This document shows, in pieces, positions 17,504 through 31,198 of a stretch of 64,000 nucleotides of DNA. The DNA lies in contig JAWAJB010000002.1 of NCBI GenBank assembly GCA_038888155.1, positions 128,001 through 192,000 of the forward strand, read 5' to 3'. A program made the translations under genes and the position numbers. Each line of letters opens with the position of its first letter. Positions within the stretch are counted from its first letter, which is position 1. The stretch is from Desulfurococcaceae archaeon. GTDB taxonomy: Archaea > Thermoproteota > Thermoprotei_A > Sulfolobales > Desulfurococcaceae. A model generated the notes under the pieces. That model did no database searches. It saw only the letters and a list, made by a program, of their open reading frames with translations, and was not told the origin of the DNA.

Positions 17504-18727
17504 CTATGCACTGATTTTTTCAGGGCTAAGAATTTTAAACACAGCATCAGGATCTTTAAGCACGTGTCCAGTCCCAACCAGCACAACTGTTTCGCTTTTA
17601 GTTAATATTCGATCTTCAAGGGATTTAATATACCCGGCGAGAGTAGTCGCGCTTGCAGGTTCAACTCCAACACCTTCCGTAACTGCAAGTTTCTTCATGG
17701 CGTCTTTTATTTCACTATCGGAGACTGATATAAATGATCCGCCCGACTCGTTAACCGCATTCAATGCTTTAGGCCAATTAACCGGCTTGCCTATTCTAAT
17801 TGCTGAAGCAATTGTTCTTGGAACAGAGACAGGCAATAAACTACTCGATTTGCTTCTCCACGTTAGTACTAAAGGAGAAGCGCCCTCCGCCTGAACACCA
17901 ATCATTCTTGGAACAGATTCTATTATACCGTTCTCGTGGAGTTCTTTGAAACCTTTCCATACTGCATAAATGTTACCCGCGTTTCCAACGGGGACAAATA
18001 CTGCATCAGGTGATTTGCCGAGTTCTTCCACGATTTCGTACGCTATTGTTTTTTGACCTTCAAGTCTCCATGGATTGTATGAATTTAGGGGATATAGATC
18101 TCTCCGTCCCTTTGTTACAACTAATTCTAAAACATTATCTAGCGCCTCATCAAATAATCCGTCGACTTCAACAACCTCGGCACCGTAAAGCATTGCTTGG
18201 GCCAATTTACCGATCGCCACGGACCCCTTCGGTAAGACCACAACGCATCTCAACCCGGCCCTCGCAGCGTATGCTGCGGCCGAAGCCGCGGTGTTTCCCG
18301 TGCTAGCGACTATTACTCCTTTAACTTCAATATGCCTTGCTATTGTAATGGCAACTGTCATCCCCCTATCTTTGAAGCTCCCCGTCGGATTTGAGCCTTC
18401 AAACTTCAAGTAAACTTTGTTATTTCCTGCTTTAGTAATAGGGATTAGCGGAGTGCCGCCCTCGCACAGAGTAACCGGATCGATCGAGTCACTAAGTGGC
18501 AGAAGCTCTCTATATCTCCATACGCAAAATTTTCGTTTTCTGAGGTCTTCCCAGCGAATCAACAGTCTCTCTATGGTGAGAACTTCAAGTGGACGTTTAC
18601 ACTTGGGACAGAAGAATAGCCATGGATCTGGAGGATAGATCGAGTTACAATATATGCATTTTAGCTTCACACCTGGTTTAAATAGGATGACATTTGAATG
18701 CTTATTTATGTTTCCAAAATAATACAC
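17504..18727 (-). CDS. thrC: Threonine synthase
   Basis: Zn-ribbon N-terminus, NPTGSFKDRG with PLP Lys intact, ASTGNT, PVGNAGN; true start possibly GTG at 18670. Confidence 0.93.
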   Translation of the reverse strand: MYYFGNINKHSNVILFKPGVKLKCIYCNSIYPPDPWLFFCPKCKRPLEVLTIERLLIRWEDLRKRKFCVWRYRELLPLSDSIDPVTLCEGGTPLIPITKAGNNKVYLKFEGSNPTGSFKDRGMTVAITIARHIEVKGVIVASTGNTAASAAAYAARAGLRCVVVLPKGSVAIGKLAQAMLYGAEVVEVDGLFDEALDNVLELVVTKGRRDLYPLNSYNPWRLEGQKTIAYEIVEELGKSPDAVFVPVGNAGNIYAVWKGFKELHENGIIESVPRMIGVQAEGASPLVLTWRSKSSSLLPVSVPRTIASAIRIGKPVNWPKALNAVNESGGSFISVSDSEIKDAMKKLAVTEGVGVEPASATTLAGYIKSLEDRILTKSETVVLVGTGHVLKDPDAVFKILSPEKISA

Positions 18728-24702: not shown

Positions 24703-25554
24703 GTGCAGGATGCCCTTGTTTCAATGGTTTACAGACAGTTGAAGAGGTGGATTAATTCTCGATCAAGGCTTTTATCAGTTATATTTCAACCTCTCCTTTG
24801 GCTAATTTTCCTTGGAGTGGGCTTTGGAAAAATATTTGACCCATCGAACCTTGACTCATCCAACCTAGGAGTAAATGCTACAGCTATACCGGCAGTAAAA
24901 GAAATTGTGTCTAATTACTTTAGTGCAATCTTCGGGGGTCTTGATTATGTAACTTTTCTGATAAGTGGGATGATCGCTATGACAGCTTTCATGGGGAGCT
25001 TCATATCTGGAATTAGCGTTATATGGGATAAACAATTCGGTTTCCTTAAAGAGACGCTAGTAGCACCAGCTCCTCGTAGCGCCATTATTATTGGAAGAAT
25101 AGTTGGAGACTCATTAATCACTACAATACAATCGTTAATAATCGTTTTACTCGCTTTTGTGTTCACGGGAAATATAAATATTTTAGGCATACCACTAGCA
25201 ATGATGTACATTTTCATGATGTCGATTGGCCTTACAAGCATAGGCACGGTTATATCTCTGAAGTTTCAGAGCGTCGAAGGATTTCAAATATTAGTTAACA
25301 TTATCATAATGCCATTTATGTTTGCGAGCGGTGTATTTTACCCAGTAAACTTTATGCCAGAGTGGATGAAACTGTTCTCCACAATTAACCCGCTCACATA
25401 TGCCGTCCACGGCACAAGGTACTGGCTAACTAAAGCAAATGTGGGACTGGATTACCTAAATCCAATGATAGATGCAACAGTTCTCCTAGTGACTGCTGTT
25501 GTATCCATGTGGGTAGCTAAAATTACGTTCGAGAGGACTACAATAGAGGATTAA
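24703..25554 (+). CDS. ABC-2 type permease
   Basis: WDKQFGFLKETLVAP, SGVFYP, NPLTYAV. Confidence 0.9.
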   Translation: MQDALVSMVYRQLKRWINSRSRLLSVIFQPLLWLIFLGVGFGKIFDPSNLDSSNLGVNATAIPAVKEIVSNYFSAIFGGLDYVTFLISGMIAMTAFMGSFISGISVIWDKQFGFLKETLVAPAPRSAIIIGRIVGDSLITTIQSLIIVLLAFVFTGNINILGIPLAMMYIFMMSIGLTSIGTVISLKFQSVEGFQILVNIIIMPFMFASGVFYPVNFMPEWMKLFSTINPLTYAVHGTRYWLTKANVGLDYLNPMIDATVLLVTAVVSMWVAKITFERTTIED

Positions 25555-25600
25555 TAGCTTATGTTTGGCGTTGGTTATCAAATTATATATACTTTATCGA

Positions 25601-26299
25601 TTACAACGTTGTAACTAATATGGTAGCAACCGAGCCTACAATGAGCAAAAACGTATATACAGAGTTTTTATTTAATTTTAATGGAGTTTTTACGCCTGTC
25701 TTGAGCCTCCAGTAACAGTACTCATCAATGAAACGACCTATTTCAATCATGCTAGCGACAGCGGGAGGAATCCTCTTAGTTACCTGCTCCCCCTTAAGGC
25801 TTCCTACACTAAGCGAATCCATGAAGTTTTTCAAGCCATATGGTACCAATCTCCAAAGTAAAAGAGGAAAAACGCAAGAACGCTTAGACCTTAGAAAGTA
25901 CAGCAAGTTATGAATTTCTATAGGCGAAATAGTTGCAAATATAAATATTAAGGAAAGCGAGAACCCAATTGCACGACCGGCAATTTCAAGTATCTGCAGC
26001 GTTTCCATGTAATAGAGTCCTGTAAATGAGAGGATATATGCTGAAATCGATAGATACAATCCAGCCAAAGAGGAAAGTATAGTTGACGCCAAAATCCACT
26101 CAGGGTGGGGGCTGAGAAGCCCGAGCGGTATAATTATAAACGACATTAAATAGGCCCGCTCCGGAATAGTCATCATCAACAGCAAAACAACTGAGACGAA
26201 TATTATCTTAGATAAGTAGTGAGCTTTTCTATAACCTTCGTCTCCAAACAGGAAAAAGGATTTATATACAATTGAAACAAGCCATCCTATGAAGCCCAT
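25601..26299 (-). CDS. ECF transporter T component (putative)
   Basis: Hydrophobic protein downstream of ECF S and ATPase genes; TISPIEI motif. Confidence 0.65.
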   Translation of the reverse strand: MGFIGWLVSIVYKSFFLFGDEGYRKAHYLSKIIFVSVVLLLMMTIPERAYLMSFIIIPLGLLSPHPEWILASTILSSLAGLYLSISAYILSFTGLYYMETLQILEIAGRAIGFSLSLIFIFATISPIEIHNLLYFLRSKRSCVFPLLLWRLVPYGLKNFMDSLSVGSLKGEQVTKRIPPAVASMIEIGRFIDEYCYWRLKTGVKTPLKLNKNSVYTFLLIVGSVATILVTTL

Positions 26300-26311
26300 G
26301 CTAAACCACCT

Positions 26312-27631
26312 CTATGTGGACAATTTAATCAAATAATCTACATAGCTCATGATCCTATCATCGTGAGAGGCAACCACAACTGTTTTTTTCTCCGAAACGA
26401 GGTCAAATAGAGCGTGTAAGACCTCCTTACAATTATCATAGTCTAGACCTCCTGTCGGTTCATCTATGAAATACCCCTCAAACCCCGCAAGATAAGCTGA
26501 AGCTATTGCGAGCCTTCTTCTCTCGCCGCTACTAAGCTTCGCCAAAGGTTTATCTAAAACTTTATTTAGATTAAACCTATCAGTTATATCGCGAACAGAG
26601 TTTTCGTTCCCCCTAGCTGAAGCAAGTAGTTCCTCTCTTGGAGTTGGCATGGTGAAGTAAAGTAGTGGATTTTCAGGTATGTATATAGAGCTCCCCCTTC
26701 TCGTTATTCGTCCTCTGGAAGGCTTTAAGGCGCCAGCTGCAAGTTTTAAAATAGTTGATTTACCAGACCCATTAGGTCCCGTAATGCATGTGAAGGTGCC
26801 CTTATTGAAGGATCCGCTAAAATTTTTGAGTACGAAACTACCGCCGGGATACTTAAACCAGACATTTTCAAATTGAACGAATAAATCGCCGCTAACGCGA
26901 GAGGCTCTCTTTTCCGAAACACCCAAATTTTTTATAACTTCCTGAGTCCACTTACCATAGTAGACCAGCCTCCCGTCTTCTAGGTAAATTAAAGTTGGTT
27001 GAAGAGGCTCCCAGAAACTTGGGTTATGATCTACTGCGAGAATGCTAACTCCGAGATTCAGCGCTTTTTTAGCGAACAATATTACTTCATTTCTTGCCTC
27101 ACGATCTAAATATACCGTTGGCTCATCGAGGATCATTAGTTTTGTGTTAACTAATACAGACTCGGACCACAAAACTCTTTGGATCTCGCCCGCACTTAAA
27201 GTATAAGTCAACCTTCCCAGGAGTCTCTCTACGTCGAACGGAATTATGTTCATATTTGTGCAATTTACACCAGCCAGAGAGAGAAACTGGCATATTTCTG
27301 CATACACGGTGTGTCCTATGAATGCGTACCAGGGTTCTTGGGGAATATATGCCATTGTGCGAAAGACCTCTTCGGCATTCATGCTTTCTATATCCCTACC
27401 ACCCAGGAGGATTTTCCCGTCTATGAATCCGCCCGCAGCTTTAAGCGTCCCAGTTATGGCCCTAACTAATGTTGTCTTTCCGCTACCTGATCTACCAGAT
27501 ATCACTAATATTTCACCTTCGTCTATCTTGAAGCTTATATCACGTAGTTGAAAGCCGTCCTTGTAGCCACAGCAATTTATTTTGGATTCTAGTAGGCTCA
27601 AAGAATCAACACCATTAATATTAGTTGACAT
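26312..27631 (-). CDS. ECF transporter ATPase with two fused ABC domains
   Basis: GRSGSGKT/LSAGE/LDEP and GPNGSGKS/LSSGE/IDEP. Confidence 0.88.
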   Translation of the reverse strand: MSTNINGVDSLSLLESKINCCGYKDGFQLRDISFKIDEGEILVISGRSGSGKTTLVRAITGTLKAAGGFIDGKILLGGRDIESMNAEEVFRTMAYIPQEPWYAFIGHTVYAEICQFLSLAGVNCTNMNIIPFDVERLLGRLTYTLSAGEIQRVLWSESVLVNTKLMILDEPTVYLDREARNEVILFAKKALNLGVSILAVDHNPSFWEPLQPTLIYLEDGRLVYYGKWTQEVIKNLGVSEKRASRVSGDLFVQFENVWFKYPGGSFVLKNFSGSFNKGTFTCITGPNGSGKSTILKLAAGALKPSRGRITRRGSSIYIPENPLLYFTMPTPREELLASARGNENSVRDITDRFNLNKVLDKPLAKLSSGERRRLAIASAYLAGFEGYFIDEPTGGLDYDNCKEVLHALFDLVSEKKTVVVASHDDRIMSYVDYLIKLST

Positions 27632-27671
27632 GATTGGTGGATATTAAAAATACATGAAAGCGCGCTGGCTA

Positions 27672-28418
27672 CTACTTAAAGTAGCCGGCCTTTCTTAGCC
27701 AAGCAGCTAACGGCAGAGATATTGAAATCCCCGCTACTAGCTGTCCAATGTTTACGGGAACCTCGATTAGAGCTCCAATAGGATCTCTTCCCGTTAGCGG
27801 GTTGCTTACAAAGTATTCATACATGAAGTAGCCTAACACCATTATTATTCCCGCTGTAAATAATGAAATGACTTCGCCCGCTGTTATGTTTTTCTTTGTA
27901 AGCATTAACATGATAAGAGCACCTAGAAATATACCAACAGTAACCCAAATAGCTATAGAGATCTCTAAATATGGCTGATCAAAAGTGAAAGTTAACCACT
28001 GAGGCGGACCGATGTATATGCCGCCTGACCATAAAACTGTAGACACTGTTAAAAAGGCAGCAGTTGATGCTCCACCTGCAATAAGGGCCTGCCAAAAACC
28101 GTGAAGCCCCCTTAACTTCTTCACCAACAGCCCAGCAATATAGCCCTCAATGAATTTTATAATTAGTGTGCCAGGCGCAAATACTGCATAACCTGTTGAT
28201 AGGTCTGCAAGCGCGGCTCCTATGCCTCCGGCTATGCCTGCGACTAATGGTGAAGATACTAGGGCTGCAAGGTATATTATTGCCTCCCCAACGTTGAAAT
28301 ATCCACCCGTAACTGGTTGGTATATCTGTAGAACGATTGTGGCAACATAAACAAGTACTGTAAAAACTACTAATTCAATGGTGTTCGTTCTTACGAGCGG
28401 CATGGGGAGTCTCCACAC
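27672..28418 (-). CDS. ECF transporter S component (HmpT/PdxU2-like)
   Basis: GGYFNVGEAIIYLAA, GGIGAALADL..GY..FAPGTLIIKFIEG, PVNIGQ. Confidence 0.82.
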   Translation of the reverse strand: MWRLPMPLVRTNTIELVVFTVLVYVATIVLQIYQPVTGGYFNVGEAIIYLAALVSSPLVAGIAGGIGAALADLSTGYAVFAPGTLIIKFIEGYIAGLLVKKLRGLHGFWQALIAGGASTAAFLTVSTVLWSGGIYIGPPQWLTFTFDQPYLEISIAIWVTVGIFLGALIMLMLTKKNITAGEVISLFTAGIIMVLGYFMYEYFVSNPLTGRDPIGALIEVPVNIGQLVAGISISLPLAAWLRKAGYFK

Positions 28419-28437
28419 CTTTATTTTGTATTTATAC

Positions 28438-28459
28438 TCTTAAAGTTTATCCTTTAAGA
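28438..28459. promoter_or_regulatory. Perfect inverted repeat in the ECF operon promoter region
   Basis: TCTTAAAG-TTTATC-CTTTAAGA; one arm coincides with the minus-strand TATA-like TTTAAG. Confidence 0.55.
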
Positions 28460-28481
28460 AAATCTTTCAATATAATGTAAC

Positions 28482-29792
28482 TTATGGAAGATAATACCTT
28501 TTTACGTCCCCTTCTTGAACAGCCCTAATATAGCCCCTATCCGTTAGCTCTTTTAGGTGTTGATATACAGCCTGTGGCGTTATATTCAAGTCCAGATTTC
28601 TCCAAATCTCATAACCAGTTAATCCCTTGTGCGTTTCAAGGACCCCAAGTATAAGCCTCTTTGTAGCACCAATAAATGGCTGTGTAAATCTCCTGCGCAA
28701 GGGTCTAGTGTAACCAGAAGCAGATTTTAGGCCGTGGCTAAAAAGCACTATAACAGAGTCTTCGAGCTCCGTTTTTAAATAGCCTGCAACGACAACAGCA
28801 GATGAAATCTCAGTGAATAACCCTTCCTGTAGTGCAAGAATCTTGGCTGCTCGTATCGTCTCTCGTGATGATACAACAACTAGATCTCCGTGTTTTCTGA
28901 GTATATCGATGACAGAGTTGAATATTGGTGGAGCGTAATACCTGAGCCCTGGATAAGGTTCCTCCATACACTTCTTTGAAATTCCTAAAAAGGAAGCATA
29001 CTTGGGGTTTCCACAATGCTCCACGCCAATAATTTCAGGCACTTTGTTTATGAATCCTCCCTCTAATAGCTCTTTGAATCCGTAGTGAAGAGCTAGAAAC
29101 GTTAAGCCGCTTCCGATTGGAACATATATTCTCCGAGGTACGGAACCGAGTTGCATGTAAAGTTCATACGAAAGTGTTTTCAACCCTTCCATGGACAGAG
29201 CGTTGTGTGTACTCGAGGCGTTATACGCTTTTACTCTACTAGAATATCCGTCAACTTCTTTTAAGAGAGCATCAATGCCTTTATCCTCTATTACAAGCTT
29301 AGCGCCGTAAGTTTTTATTAGAAAGATCTTCTCCTTTTCAATCCACGATGGGGCATATATGCTTGCCTTTAGACCAGCCCTAGTAGCGTATGCAGCTACG
29401 CTAACACCCATATTTCCGTCACTAACTGCGATAACTCTCTTATAGCCTTCTGAGCTCGCGTGACTAACAACTAAGCTAGCAGCTCTATCCCTAATACTAC
29501 CAGTCGGGTTACATCCCTCATTCTTAAAATATACGTTTTTTCCTTTTGCTATCCTCATCGACCTTAACAGAGGAGTATTTCCTTCTCCAAGCGAGATCTT
29601 TACTTTCAAGGGTGGAAGCATGTTGCTGTATCTCCAAATTCCGGGCAACGAGGAGGATTCTTTGAATGTTTTAATATAATTAGCTTTTACAAGTCCCCCG
29701 CAATAAGGACAGATTAGTTTTGGGGCGTTCAACAATTCGTTGCAATTACTACATTTAAATAATGGCATTGAAGCATTCATAGTACCTTGCAT
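28482..29792 (-). CDS. Threonine-synthase-like protein lacking the PLP lysine, fused to a C-terminal winged helix-turn-helix
   Basis: NPTGSIRDR instead of NPTGSFKDR; C-terminal GLTGYEIW...TPQAVYQHLKELTDRGYI. Confidence 0.8.
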   Translation of the reverse strand: MQGTMNASMPLFKCSNCNELLNAPKLICPYCGGLVKANYIKTFKESSSLPGIWRYSNMLPPLKVKISLGEGNTPLLRSMRIAKGKNVYFKNEGCNPTGSIRDRAASLVVSHASSEGYKRVIAVSDGNMGVSVAAYATRAGLKASIYAPSWIEKEKIFLIKTYGAKLVIEDKGIDALLKEVDGYSSRVKAYNASSTHNALSMEGLKTLSYELYMQLGSVPRRIYVPIGSGLTFLALHYGFKELLEGGFINKVPEIIGVEHCGNPKYASFLGISKKCMEEPYPGLRYYAPPIFNSVIDILRKHGDLVVVSSRETIRAAKILALQEGLFTEISSAVVVAGYLKTELEDSVIVLFSHGLKSASGYTRPLRRRFTQPFIGATKRLILGVLETHKGLTGYEIWRNLDLNITPQAVYQHLKELTDRGYIRAVQEGDVKRYYLP

Positions 29793-29892
29793 AAAGGTTT
29801 CCTTAAAAATCTCTAAGAATTACCAAGTATAAAATATTCCCCTACGAGCCTTATATGTAATTTAAACAGTTTTTGTTGTATTAATGCAAAAA

Positions 29893-30372
29893 TCACTGAG
29901 TGAACTCGTGGTTAATCCCCTCAAGTGGTAAAGTATTTAAACCATATTTCTTAATTCTCGAAACAAGAGACCTTACAGTCTTAGATATCTCTTTTATGCT
30001 GGCCAGTTCATCTATTTCAAACCAAGCTACATCAGCAGCATCTCCACCTGGCTTAAGCTCTCCGCGAACTGTGTCGGGGTTAAATAATATATCCACTATG
30101 AGGTAATGATACAACACTCGCTTAGATTGATCGTAAACAACGTTGTTCAACACCCATAGTATACCTAGCGGGTCTGCATCTAGTCCAGTTTCTTCTTTGA
30201 GCTCTCGCCTGGCAGCCTCCTCTAGTCTCTCCCCAGCTTCAATGACACCTCCGGGTAGAGACCATCTTCCCAGCCCGGGAGGGTGTCCGCGCTTAACTAA
30301 AAGGATCTTATTTTTATTGACTAATACTGCAGCGACAGAAGCTATTGCGTACCTTGGGTACACTCTCTCCAA
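29893..30372 (-). CDS. NUDIX hydrolase (ADP-ribose pyrophosphatase-like)
   Basis: GGVIEAGERLEEAARRELKEETGL Nudix box. Confidence 0.9.
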   Translation of the reverse strand: MERVYPRYAIASVAAVLVNKNKILLVKRGHPPGLGRWSLPGGVIEAGERLEEAARRELKEETGLDADPLGILWVLNNVVYDQSKRVLYHYLIVDILFNPDTVRGELKPGGDAADVAWFEIDELASIKEISKTVRSLVSRIKKYGLNTLPLEGINHEFTQ

Positions 30373-30469
30373 AAAGATCACCTTTATATCATGTTTGAAT
30401 AAGTTGAGGAACTATAAATAAGCATGCTTACATGCTTCTCTTGAGGGGTCATCATTTGGGGTGATTTTC

Positions 30470-31198
30470 ATGGAGTACAAACCTAAAGTATTGATTATAC
30501 ACAGCTCGCCAAGAAGGTATGGTGCCTCTTCCCAGCTTGCAGAAATTGCCGGGATAGGCGTAAATGATGCAGGCGGTTTAGTAGAGAGAATTTTCCTCTA
30601 CGACTATAACATAAAGCCCTGCATAGGATGCGTCTCGGATGGGATAGCTTATTGTAGGTTTCCTTGTATAATTCGCGATGATGACTTTAACTACGTTGCA
30701 AATAAGATAATGGAAGCTGATGGCTTAATAATAGCTACACCAGTTTACTGGTATGCTCCTAGCGGTATTCTGAAGAACGTGCTCGATAGGTTAACAAGTA
30801 TGGAGAACATGATCTTTCACAAGAGTAAGAGCCTGTTAGAAGGGAAAGTGGCTGGATTCATTGCAACAGGTCTCGATAGCGGAGTAATGACATCGATAGC
30901 ATACTTGATGGCTGTATTGAATAGTATGGGTGTTATCATACCTCCATGGAGTATGGCATACTCGCACGTCGAGGAAATTGTCAAAGATGAGAATGCACTT
31001 AGAGATGCTTACAATGTGGGTTACTTAGTTACCGAGGCTTTGAAAGCGTTGAAAGCTTACGATAAACCCTTGGGTTATAAGCCGGACATCGAAGTTAAGA
31101 AGCTCACGGAAACTCTCAAGAACTATAGTGTAACGAAATCGTCTGAGAGGGAAATAAGGTTAAAGTTGCTTAACTCTCTGCTCGATCAGAACCGCTGA
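30470..31198 (+). CDS. Iron-sulfur flavoprotein / NADPH-dependent FMN reductase family
   Basis: SSPRRYG, CIGC..C..PC, ATPVYW. Confidence 0.85.
   Translation: MEYKPKVLIIHSSPRRYGASSQLAEIAGIGVNDAGGLVERIFLYDYNIKPCIGCVSDGIAYCRFPCIIRDDDFNYVANKIMEADGLIIATPVYWYAPSGILKNVLDRLTSMENMIFHKSKSLLEGKVAGFIATGLDSGVMTSIAYLMAVLNSMGVIIPPWSMAYSHVEEIVKDENALRDAYNVGYLVTEALKALKAYDKPLGYKPDIEVKKLTETLKNYSVTKSSEREIRLKLLNSLLDQNR

Follow-up and report, generated by a model that had tools for sequence, protein, structure and literature searches.

A threonine synthase-like protein without the catalytic lysine as a probable regulator of an ECF importer in archaea

What does a gene with the scaffold of a threonine synthase (ThrC) do directly in front of an importer operon, in a genome that also has an intact threonine synthase gene (thrC)? 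The question is raised by the window analysed here, that is, the whole stretch of 64,000 nucleotides at positions 128,001 to 192,000 of contig JAWAJB010000002.1 (assembly GCA_038888155.1, Desulfurococcaceae archaeon). The gene, which we call R, is followed after a gap of 63 bp by genes for the S, A-A' and T components of an energy-coupling factor (ECF) importer. An earlier reading made from the letters alone (the sequence-only reading) had proposed that R encodes a regulator of this importer, composed of a fold-type-II pseudoenzyme and a winged helix. The core of that proposal stood, through the joint occurrence of lysine loss and winged helix, the linkage of R to the S gene (ecfS) and a palindrome that accompanies R. 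We conclude, on sequence grounds, that R is most probably an enzyme-derived one-component regulator and not a threonine synthase. That it is a DNA-binding regulator of ecfS is very probable, and to the whole reading, in which R is a one-component repressor of the importer that arose from a disabled threonine synthase and answers to a B6-type ligand, we give a probability of about 0.6, a figure in which the regulator part counts for more than the ligand.

The four co-oriented open reading frames (ORFs) were recovered on the minus strand with the limits and order first given to them, with S downstream of R and only the identity of T remaining at the level of probable. The features are as follows.

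28482 to 29792, minus strand: R, the candidate regulator gene, 436 amino acids (aa), with Zn ribbon, ThrC-fold pseudoenzyme domain, linker and C-terminal winged helix
29700 to 29753, minus strand: N-terminal Zn ribbon of R with four cysteines (C14, C17, C28, C31), from the translation
28743 to 29597, minus strand: fold-type-II domain of R (residues 66-350), of the type found in pyridoxal 5'-phosphate (PLP) enzymes, from the PALP match
29490 to 29492, minus strand: codon AGG for Arg101 of R at the position of the Schiff-base lysine, from the alignment to thrC
28485 to 28676, minus strand: C-terminal winged helix-turn-helix of R (residues 373-436), from models and sub-threshold matches
28439 to 28458, no strand: candidate operator, perfect inverted repeat CTTAAAG-N6-CTTTAAG in the R-S spacer
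28464 to 28469, minus strand: hexamer TGAAAG, conserved in spacers, a presumed half-site
27672 to 28418, minus strand: ECF S (substrate-capture) component, 248 aa, from the PF07155 match
26312 to 27631, minus strand: fused A-A' ATPase of the ECF module, 439 aa, with two ABC_tran stretches
25601 to 26299, minus strand: probable, divergent ECF T component, a membrane protein of 232 aa, from its position and CbiQ matches of orthologues
17504 to 18727, minus strand: intact thrC paralogue (SFKDR, ASTGNT, PVGNAGN), context only, outside the proposed system

The protein R clearly has the fold of a threonine synthase. The Pfam family PALP covers its residues 66-350 with an expectation value (E) of 3.6e-61, and an AlphaFold2 model with a mean confidence (pLDDT) of 92.5 found threonine synthases as its top Foldseek matches (6nmx, 2d1f and 1v7c, target TM-scores 0.81-0.83). 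By sequence as well as by fold the nearest solved relatives are threonine synthases. The motifs LGEGNTPL, NPTGSIRDR, VSDGNM, PIGSGLT and EGLKTLSYEL are all present, and alignment with the thrC of the same window pairs NPTGSIRDR with NPTGSFKDR, VSDGNM with ASTGNT and PIGSGLT with PVGNAGN, so that the scaffold and the altered motifs which the sequence-only reading had described were seen again. The intact thrC that it had placed at 17504-18727 was likewise confirmed. The four cysteines of the Zn ribbon are at least 90% conserved in a family alignment of 63 sequences, and thrC has the same ribbon. The C-terminus of R is about 65 residues longer than that of thrC, which has no C-terminal extension.

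At the position of the Schiff-base lysine R has an arginine. The codon AGG (Arg101) aligns with the lysine of SFKDR in thrC, and it reads identically in contigs that cover it from four hot-spring metagenome runs of two studies; the window itself may stem from one of these runs. Arginine is also found here in 13 of the 13 closest orthologues. Since contigs and orthologues agree, the codon is not an assembly slip; the lysine-to-arginine exchange claimed for R is real, and a lysine, which would have spoken for an ordinary enzyme, was seen neither in the read-derived contigs nor in the close homologues.

R belongs to a large family of archaea, with members in Desulfurococcales, Bathyarchaeia and Asgard lineages, and throughout this family the loss of the lysine goes with the winged helix. 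Among the matches listed from a collection of 5.8 billion proteins, 69 of 70 homologues with a winged helix have no lysine (the exception being P0045), and the lysine is present in 50 of 50 that have no winged helix. An index-free profile search gave 143 further representatives at 50% identity: 81 have a winged helix and 79 of these no lysine, the residue being L in 22, I in 18, R in 16, T in 6, V in 6, M in 4, F in 2 and Y, S, H, A or N in one each. The other 62, without a winged helix, comprise 50 with lysine, 10 unreadable by the pattern and two with arginine, these two being a fragment of 247 aa and a protein matched only in part. A family member occurs in 22 of 41 related genomes and none of the 22 has the lysine (13 R, 7 I, 1 F, 1 T), and in a set of 80 loci described below lysine is found in none of the 76 readable proteins (71 R, 3 L, 1 S, 1 V).

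The survey thus bears out the proposed co-occurrence of lysine loss and winged helix (69 of 70 and 79 of 81). The lysine-to-arginine part of that proposal stood as a loss of lysine only; arginine is not special, the position being Leu, Ile, Arg, Val, Met or Thr across the family (L 28%, I 22% and R 20% among 80 fused representatives). We had considered arginine as a functional replacement, paired for example with the aspartate of SDGN, and rejected this because most members have Leu, Ile, Val, Met or Thr.

On a FastTree phylogeny of 148 catalytic domains, from which the winged helix had been trimmed, the winged-helix label needs three changes, at least one of them the mislabelled P0084, against a mean of 45.4 for shuffled labels; the tree is a quick one, used unrooted in this test, and supports clustering only, with no claim of a single origin. 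It shows an Arg-type group, with the window protein and Bathyarchaeia, and an aliphatic-type group. Three proteins with a winged helix, P0045, P0123 and P0128, have kept the lysine (NPT[SN]SFKDR) and fall inside the Arg-type group on this tree. They could be reversions, Arg and Lys codons being one base apart, or members that still bind PLP covalently.

These counts bear on the reading that R is simply an active threonine synthase or another PLP enzyme. Relatives of R are named 'threonine synthase' or 'pyridoxal-phosphate dependent enzyme' in their sources, and the curated profile NF004170 ('PRK05638', 442 positions) covers the whole architecture, its positions 2-428 aligning to residues 12-434 of R, through the winged helix. 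Against this, R has no Schiff-base lysine, the residues found there across the family are chemically unrelated, and the genome encodes two more Lys-type paralogues besides the intact thrC. Moreover, R scores below the curated equivalog cut-offs (NF004170, 394.7 against 421 bits; NF005035, 189.2 against 301; TIGR00260, 97.4 against 167.1). We therefore find an enzymatic role hardly credible. A Bathyarchaeia member and R both reach about 394.6 bits on NF004170, just under 421, and the alignment suggests that what this profile describes as 'threonine synthase' is the Lys-less fused family.

What has been kept in the pocket is as informative as what has been lost. The scaffold positions D, R, G-N, G-x-G, E and T-G are equally conserved in the 80 fused representatives and in 49 Lys-bearing enzymes. 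In thrC numbering, the fused proteins have D120 in 100%, R121 in 100%, G144 in 99%, N145 in 85%, G248 in 94%, G250 in 100%, E356 in 98% and T386 in 96%. Because the pocket is under purifying selection and the position of the covalent anchor varies freely, the fused proteins are best understood as reversible binders and not as enzymes.

The C-terminal residues of R form a winged helix. The AlphaFold2 model has helices at 374-387, 393-400 and 406-419 and strands at 423-427 and 430-434, and a separate model of the domain (pLDDT 84) gave the same helix-helix-helix-hairpin. Its Foldseek matches are MecI, ArsR-type proteins, AspA, F-93 and the PadR-DNA complex 5x11, with LmrR also found. The PadR/ArsR-type domain of about 60 residues that had been suggested from the letters was therefore recognised by structure, with about 65 residues, three helices and a hairpin; in Pfam it stays sub-threshold, the only matches to residues 379-435 being F-93_WHD, HTH_11, HTH_24 and MarR_2. 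The relatives are clearer: a PadR match is found in 20 of 25 aligned C-terminal domains at E <= 0.001 (best 9.9e-13), and in scans of whole proteins PF03551, with its cut-off of 27 bits, gave 42.7 for the relative from locus L040, 37.3 for that from L045 and 27.1 for that from L046. The window protein itself has no PF03551 match at E <= 0.01 as a whole or at E <= 0.001 as a domain. The motif QAVYQHL of the recognition helix is nearly invariant in the family. Most relatives outside the window's genus continue for 15-25 residues past the wing with one more helix (consensus ...T.kG...L......L..LL), as do short PadR proteins, in which this helix contributes to dimerisation.

The linkage of R to ecfS was examined in 80 loci, on contigs from one genome per species, fished with two peptide patterns of which one came from the recognition helix. 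An S gene lies immediately downstream on the same strand in 52 of these loci, 1.1-1.5 kb downstream in three and on the opposite strand in five; six loci have no S and too little downstream DNA to judge. By label, S is present in 44 of 46 loci from Bathyarchaeia, 11 of 15 from Desulfurococcales/Thermoprotei, three of eight from Asgard archaea and two of 11 others. In the 22 R-bearing relatives of the window's genome S follows R directly in 13 and is unlinked in seven, R being cut by the contig end in two. Both genes are also present in the cultured Thermosphaera chiliense and in Thermogladius. No A or T genes come after S in Bathyarchaeia, where S stands with R alone; the conserved link is therefore to the substrate-specific subunit. 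The expected conservation of the ECF linkage thus holds across phyla for the S gene and fails, in Bathyarchaeia, for the A and T genes.

A second line of evidence is a palindrome in the 63-bp spacer between R and S, the perfect inverted repeat CTTAAAG-N6-CTTTAAG at 28439-28458 (window position 28440 is G000 C2:156440 of the window's genome). Its arm nearer S doubles as an archaeal TATA-like box, with TATAAATA just beyond, towards S. The hexamer TGAAAG begins 12 bases upstream of the left arm (start to start) and is kept in the spacers of the window and of loci L031-L034, L036 and L070-L072. In genomes of the same family that possess a close R, the core TAAAG-N6-CTTTA was found 17-55 nt from the S start in 13 of 13 S-upstream regions, with no mismatch in 12 and one in the remaining region. 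In some orthologues the two arms have changed in concert, to give TATAAAG-N6-CTTTATA. The core also stands upstream of S in G017, where R and S are on different contigs, and in L077, where R and S-AA'-T are divergent, the palindrome lies in the shared spacer. The genomes with S and without R, seven of the ten being from the window's genus, gave the core in 0 of 10, their best matches having 2-4 scattered mismatches.

In some genomes of the window's genus R lies between a gene for an oligopeptide-type ATP-binding cassette (ABC) ATPase and S. R and the palindrome are both missing from that spot in other genomes of the genus (loci L052, L055 and L057, from G015, G002 and G008, against L031 and L032, from G003 and G006), as if, to judge from these sequences, the regulator and its site had been lost together.

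In Bathyarchaeia the DNA from a TATA-like box to the beginning of S holds another palindrome, TAGTATAGTT-NN-AACTATACTA, of 22 bp. In L130 and L135, where S has moved away from R, this palindrome is still found with S, and each of the five genomes searched has it once, the reversed-pattern control giving 0, 0, 0, 1 and 0. Five R-S spacers from this group (L106, L118, L141, L144 and L147) have an extra right half-site, ACAACTATACTA, directly after the palindrome; the extra ACAACTATACTA copies suggest that more than one dimer may bind. The operator type thus differs between the two R clades, and in both the palindrome overlaps or directly follows the core promoter. Since two clades have two operator types, both at the core promoter, we suggest that R is a dimeric repressor which has co-evolved with its site.

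A dimer is also predicted by modelling. The homodimer model of R has an interface score (ipSAE) of 0.85, against 0.00 for the best control, with contacts that agree to at least 53%, a pLDDT of at least 85 and the interface in the ThrC domain. In the calibration, 20 of 30 proteins with structures solved as pairs and one of 23 solved as single chains came up to the ipSAE mark. This pass may reflect nothing more than the likeness of R to solved ThrC dimers.

It is conceivable that another factor uses the palindrome and that R is a binding or chaperone protein for the transporter or its cargo, with the winged helix serving as a protein contact. A gene pair alone would also fit such a metabolic partnership, and the winged helix of R is sub-threshold and has no PadR C-terminal helix. 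Against it, within one genus the palindrome is present exactly where R is and absent where R is absent, it differs between the two R clades, the recognition-helix motif is nearly invariant and the winged-helix model resembles DNA-bound repressors. A role for R away from DNA is therefore very unlikely.

The strict window-type palindrome has three sites in the 2.42-Mb genome of the window, against 0-1 in shuffles; the two besides that at R-S fall within an ORF or an uninformative spacer. A riboswitch upstream of S was sought in window positions 25000-30600, with no Rfam match at E <= 1.

We propose that R works as a repressor in the following way. Its ThrC-fold domain, without the lysine and with the rest of the cofactor pocket kept, would bind a small phosphorylated ligand reversibly. 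R would dimerise through this domain, as modelled, and the PadR-like winged helices at the C-termini of the two subunits would contact the palindrome at 28439-28458. As the palindrome overlaps the TATA-like box of ecfS, bound R would block TBP/TFB. From the position of the operator and the usual logic of vitamin importers, R would repress the S-AA'-T importer when the ligand is plentiful. The likeliest ligand would be the phosphate of a B6 vitamer, PLP or pyridoxamine 5'-phosphate (PMP), and the likeliest cargo of the importer a B6 vitamer.

What the importer carries depends mainly on S. This protein matches PF07155 with 74.2 bits (cut-off 26.7) and is the only gene of the PF07155/PF12822 type in the window's genome. 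PF07155 includes PdxU and PdxU2/HmpT, as stated in part of PMC9997740. The sequence-only reading had likened S to HmpT/PdxU2. The family membership stood and the closer likeness proved weak: the only match of S among sequences in the PDB (phmmer) is 4hzu_S, aligned over residues 10-129 at E 2.1e-4. According to a section of PMC4860826, HmpT has the conserved pocket residues E41, H84, Q87, Y120, N140 and Q143. At these positions S has E for E41, K for H84, E for Q87 and F for Y120, a pocket unlike that of the subfamily; N140 and Q143 lie outside the aligned stretch. The A-A' protein has two ABC_tran stretches (E 2.5e-43) and scores 152-153 bits on the ECF_ATPase models, below their cut-offs. 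The T protein itself matches no family. The position of its gene is conserved among relatives, and CbiQ (PF02361) is found in three of 12 positional orthologues (best 6.7e-7); a profile of these 12 gave no match among solved chains.

The vitamin context is broader than B6. PdxS, RibH and ThiC had no match in the window's genome, which encodes PLP enzymes, thrC for example, though without PdxS. A ThiD-ThiN fusion is present at G000 C2:89707-91089 (L157; Phos_pyr_kin 304.8 bits, ThiN 146.7 bits), and the organism looks, from its gene content, auxotrophic for several vitamins. An ORF of 202 aa beside this gene was considered as a ThiR-like regulator and set aside, as it has no family match. Among the 41 relatives PdxS occurs in 19, RibH in 20 and ThiC in 17, and among the 10 genomes without S in seven, six and six, respectively. 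The window's genome has 2.42 Mb in 134 contigs with 6.4% contamination; most relatives in the genus have 1.2-1.5 Mb, and its large size may come from a mixed bin.

A gene of about 330 aa from the aminoimidazole ribonucleotide synthase (AIRS) family, resembling thiL, follows S in 33 of the 80 loci, mostly from Bathyarchaeia (e.g. L088:8228-9253), and stands divergently beside S in G028. It occurs in 38 of the 41 relatives, and the copy of the window's genome lies outside the window (G000 C3:90829-91812; L158:4330-5313). Its identity with ThiL was considered and rejected: it scores 64-98 bits against a cut-off of 184, and a canonical ThiL (at least 246 bits) is found elsewhere in five of five Bathyarchaeia genomes tested. 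Its family and place point to an ATP-dependent processing of the imported compound, and the protein may be a kinase for it.

We favour B6 as the ligand of R because the PLP pocket is kept, PdxS is lacking, S is the sole component of the PF07155 type and that family holds PdxU and PdxU2/HmpT, the latter a binder of pyridoxamine. This choice is tentative and somewhat short of an even chance. The nearest competitor is thiamine salvage, with the same R and operator: the cargo of S would be hydroxymethylpyrimidine (HMP) or thiamine, and the former PLP pocket of R would serve to sense HMP phosphate or a thiamine phosphate. HMP phosphate is similar in shape to PMP, and a genome without ThiC and with a ThiD-ThiN fusion must obtain the pyrimidine moiety from outside, for which S is again the only PF07155/PF12822-type component. 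The ThiL-like gene after or beside S would also fit, and the nearest S component of known structure owes its first name, HmpT, to HMP, although it bound pyridoxamine rather than HMP, as parts of PMC4860826 report. The operonic AIRS-like gene is, moreover, not ThiL, the pocket of R keeps the residues of a PLP site, and ThiC (eight) and PdxS (seven) show no anticorrelation in the 22 R-bearing relatives. We consider a thiamine-type ligand unlikely.

The origin of the sensor invites another thought, namely that R senses O-phosphohomoserine, threonine, homoserine or serine and that the importer carries a related compound. Regulators derived from enzymes often retain the substrate site, R descends from an enzyme of threonine synthesis, and a homoserine dehydrogenase gene lies upstream in six of the 80 loci. 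At the positions aligned with T146 and R221 of ThrC, which we take from the Thermus thermophilus structures to bind the substrate phosphate, R has Met and Ser. Without the lysine, external aldimine chemistry could not proceed from an internal aldimine. The known ECF S components of PF07155 are, according to PMC9997740, vitamin transporters. An amino-acid ligand is for these reasons quite improbable.

A number of observations weigh against the reading of R as a B6-responsive repressor of the importer. That the proteins of the 80 loci have a winged helix follows from the design of the search pattern, which leaves the lysine count and the neighbourhood unaffected. Fourteen of these loci have no S although their downstream DNA extends for at least 1.5 kb, and S is present in only three of the eight Asgard loci. 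R is missing from 11 of the 31 S-bearing relatives, and because S occurs without it there, R must be dispensable. The winged helix of R lies below every Pfam cut-off, and R, like its nearest relatives, ends two residues after the wing, without the C-terminal helix of most relatives. It also has Phe at the Thr of the T-G-x-G-L-K motif, which is 96% conserved, and this may mean weaker cofactor binding in the window's genus. S keeps one of the four alignable HmpT pocket residues (Glu41 only). The palindrome searches in the window's genome and in five Bathyarchaeia genomes gave no extended regulon that could name the ligand, and the phyletic patterns of PdxS, RibH and ThiC in the 41 relatives do not discriminate between vitamins. 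As the genome also lacks ThiC and RibH, its sole S component could serve another vitamin.

Other genes were seen around R. In the window the gene next to R on its upstream side, with the same orientation, encodes a Nudix hydrolase (29893-30381, PF00293, 5.5e-25); the order Nudix-R is also found in G001 and G013, and in G026 with the Nudix gene divergent. In G035 and G039, where R is not beside S, a gene of the metallo-beta-lactamase fold directly follows R (L046:2553-3266 and L051:7273-8013), and a biotin carboxylase gene is near R in L049 and L051.

Little is known of the regulation of vitamin B6 in Archaea, and the B6 transporters are described in parts of PMC9997740 as poorly charted in general. 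The locus offers a concrete triad of regulator, operator and importer, with predicted operators in two lineages, and a simple route from enzyme to sensor, in which one lysine is lost and a winged helix is gained. If all its parts were to hold together, R would represent the first archaeal family of transcription factors that respond to B6 (PLP/PMP), a family widely distributed among Thermoproteota and Asgard archaea in which removal of the Schiff-base lysine turned a cofactor site into a reversible cofactor sensor, its one-gene regulon would identify the archaeal B6 importer, and the AIRS-like gene after S in Bathyarchaeia would encode a new vitamer kinase; this combination is doubtful. There is also a systematic naming error, as the family carries the label 'threonine synthase' in hundreds of genomes, and these labels can distort reconstructions of threonine synthesis in Bathyarchaeia and Asgard archaea. 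No description of a ThrC-PadR fusion regulator or of its link to an ECF S component was found in the open-licence papers and preprints searched; an earlier mention is possible.

Compared with the known families, R shares the Zn ribbon, the fold and nearly all scaffold motifs with ThrC (NF004170, TIGR00260) and differs from it by the missing catalytic lysine, the additional winged helix and scores below the cut-offs. With PadR repressors such as Bacillus subtilis PadR and LmrR it has in common the winged-helix fold and palindromic operators, which for R are predicted; unlike these, R carries its winged helix on the C-terminal side of a large sensor domain, is predicted to dimerise by way of its ThrC domain and has no PadR C-terminal helix. 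The S of the window and Lactobacillus brevis HmpT/PdxU2 (PDB 4HZU) are both PF07155 members, the former with 248 aa and a dedicated fused A-A' and T module, the latter with 166 aa and a shared module.

Archaea have other vitamin regulators derived from enzymes. ThiR (with a ThiN domain) and RbkR (with a riboflavin kinase domain) combine a domain from an enzyme of a cofactor pathway with one that binds DNA, and control genes for synthesis or uptake of that cofactor through palindromes that overlap promoters. R differs from both in the sensor fold and in the DNA-binding domain, and the literature searched gave no regulator of this type with a ThrC fold. The MocR regulators of Bacteria have an N-terminal GntR domain and a fold-type-I domain whose lysine binds PLP covalently. 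MocR, PdxR and GabR are, like R, one-component regulators with a PLP-enzyme fold as sensor, but in R the winged helix is PadR-like and C-terminal, the sensor domain is of fold type II (ThrC) and the lysine is missing, so that R has none of the features that define MocR. According to parts of PMC5320631, PdxR controls B6 synthesis, salvage and the pdxU importer, and MocR-type PLP regulators are absent from Archaea. Because of this reported absence, the role of a PLP-type regulator is left open there. R and MocR/PdxR are independent inventions, and R would work like MocR without belonging to that family.

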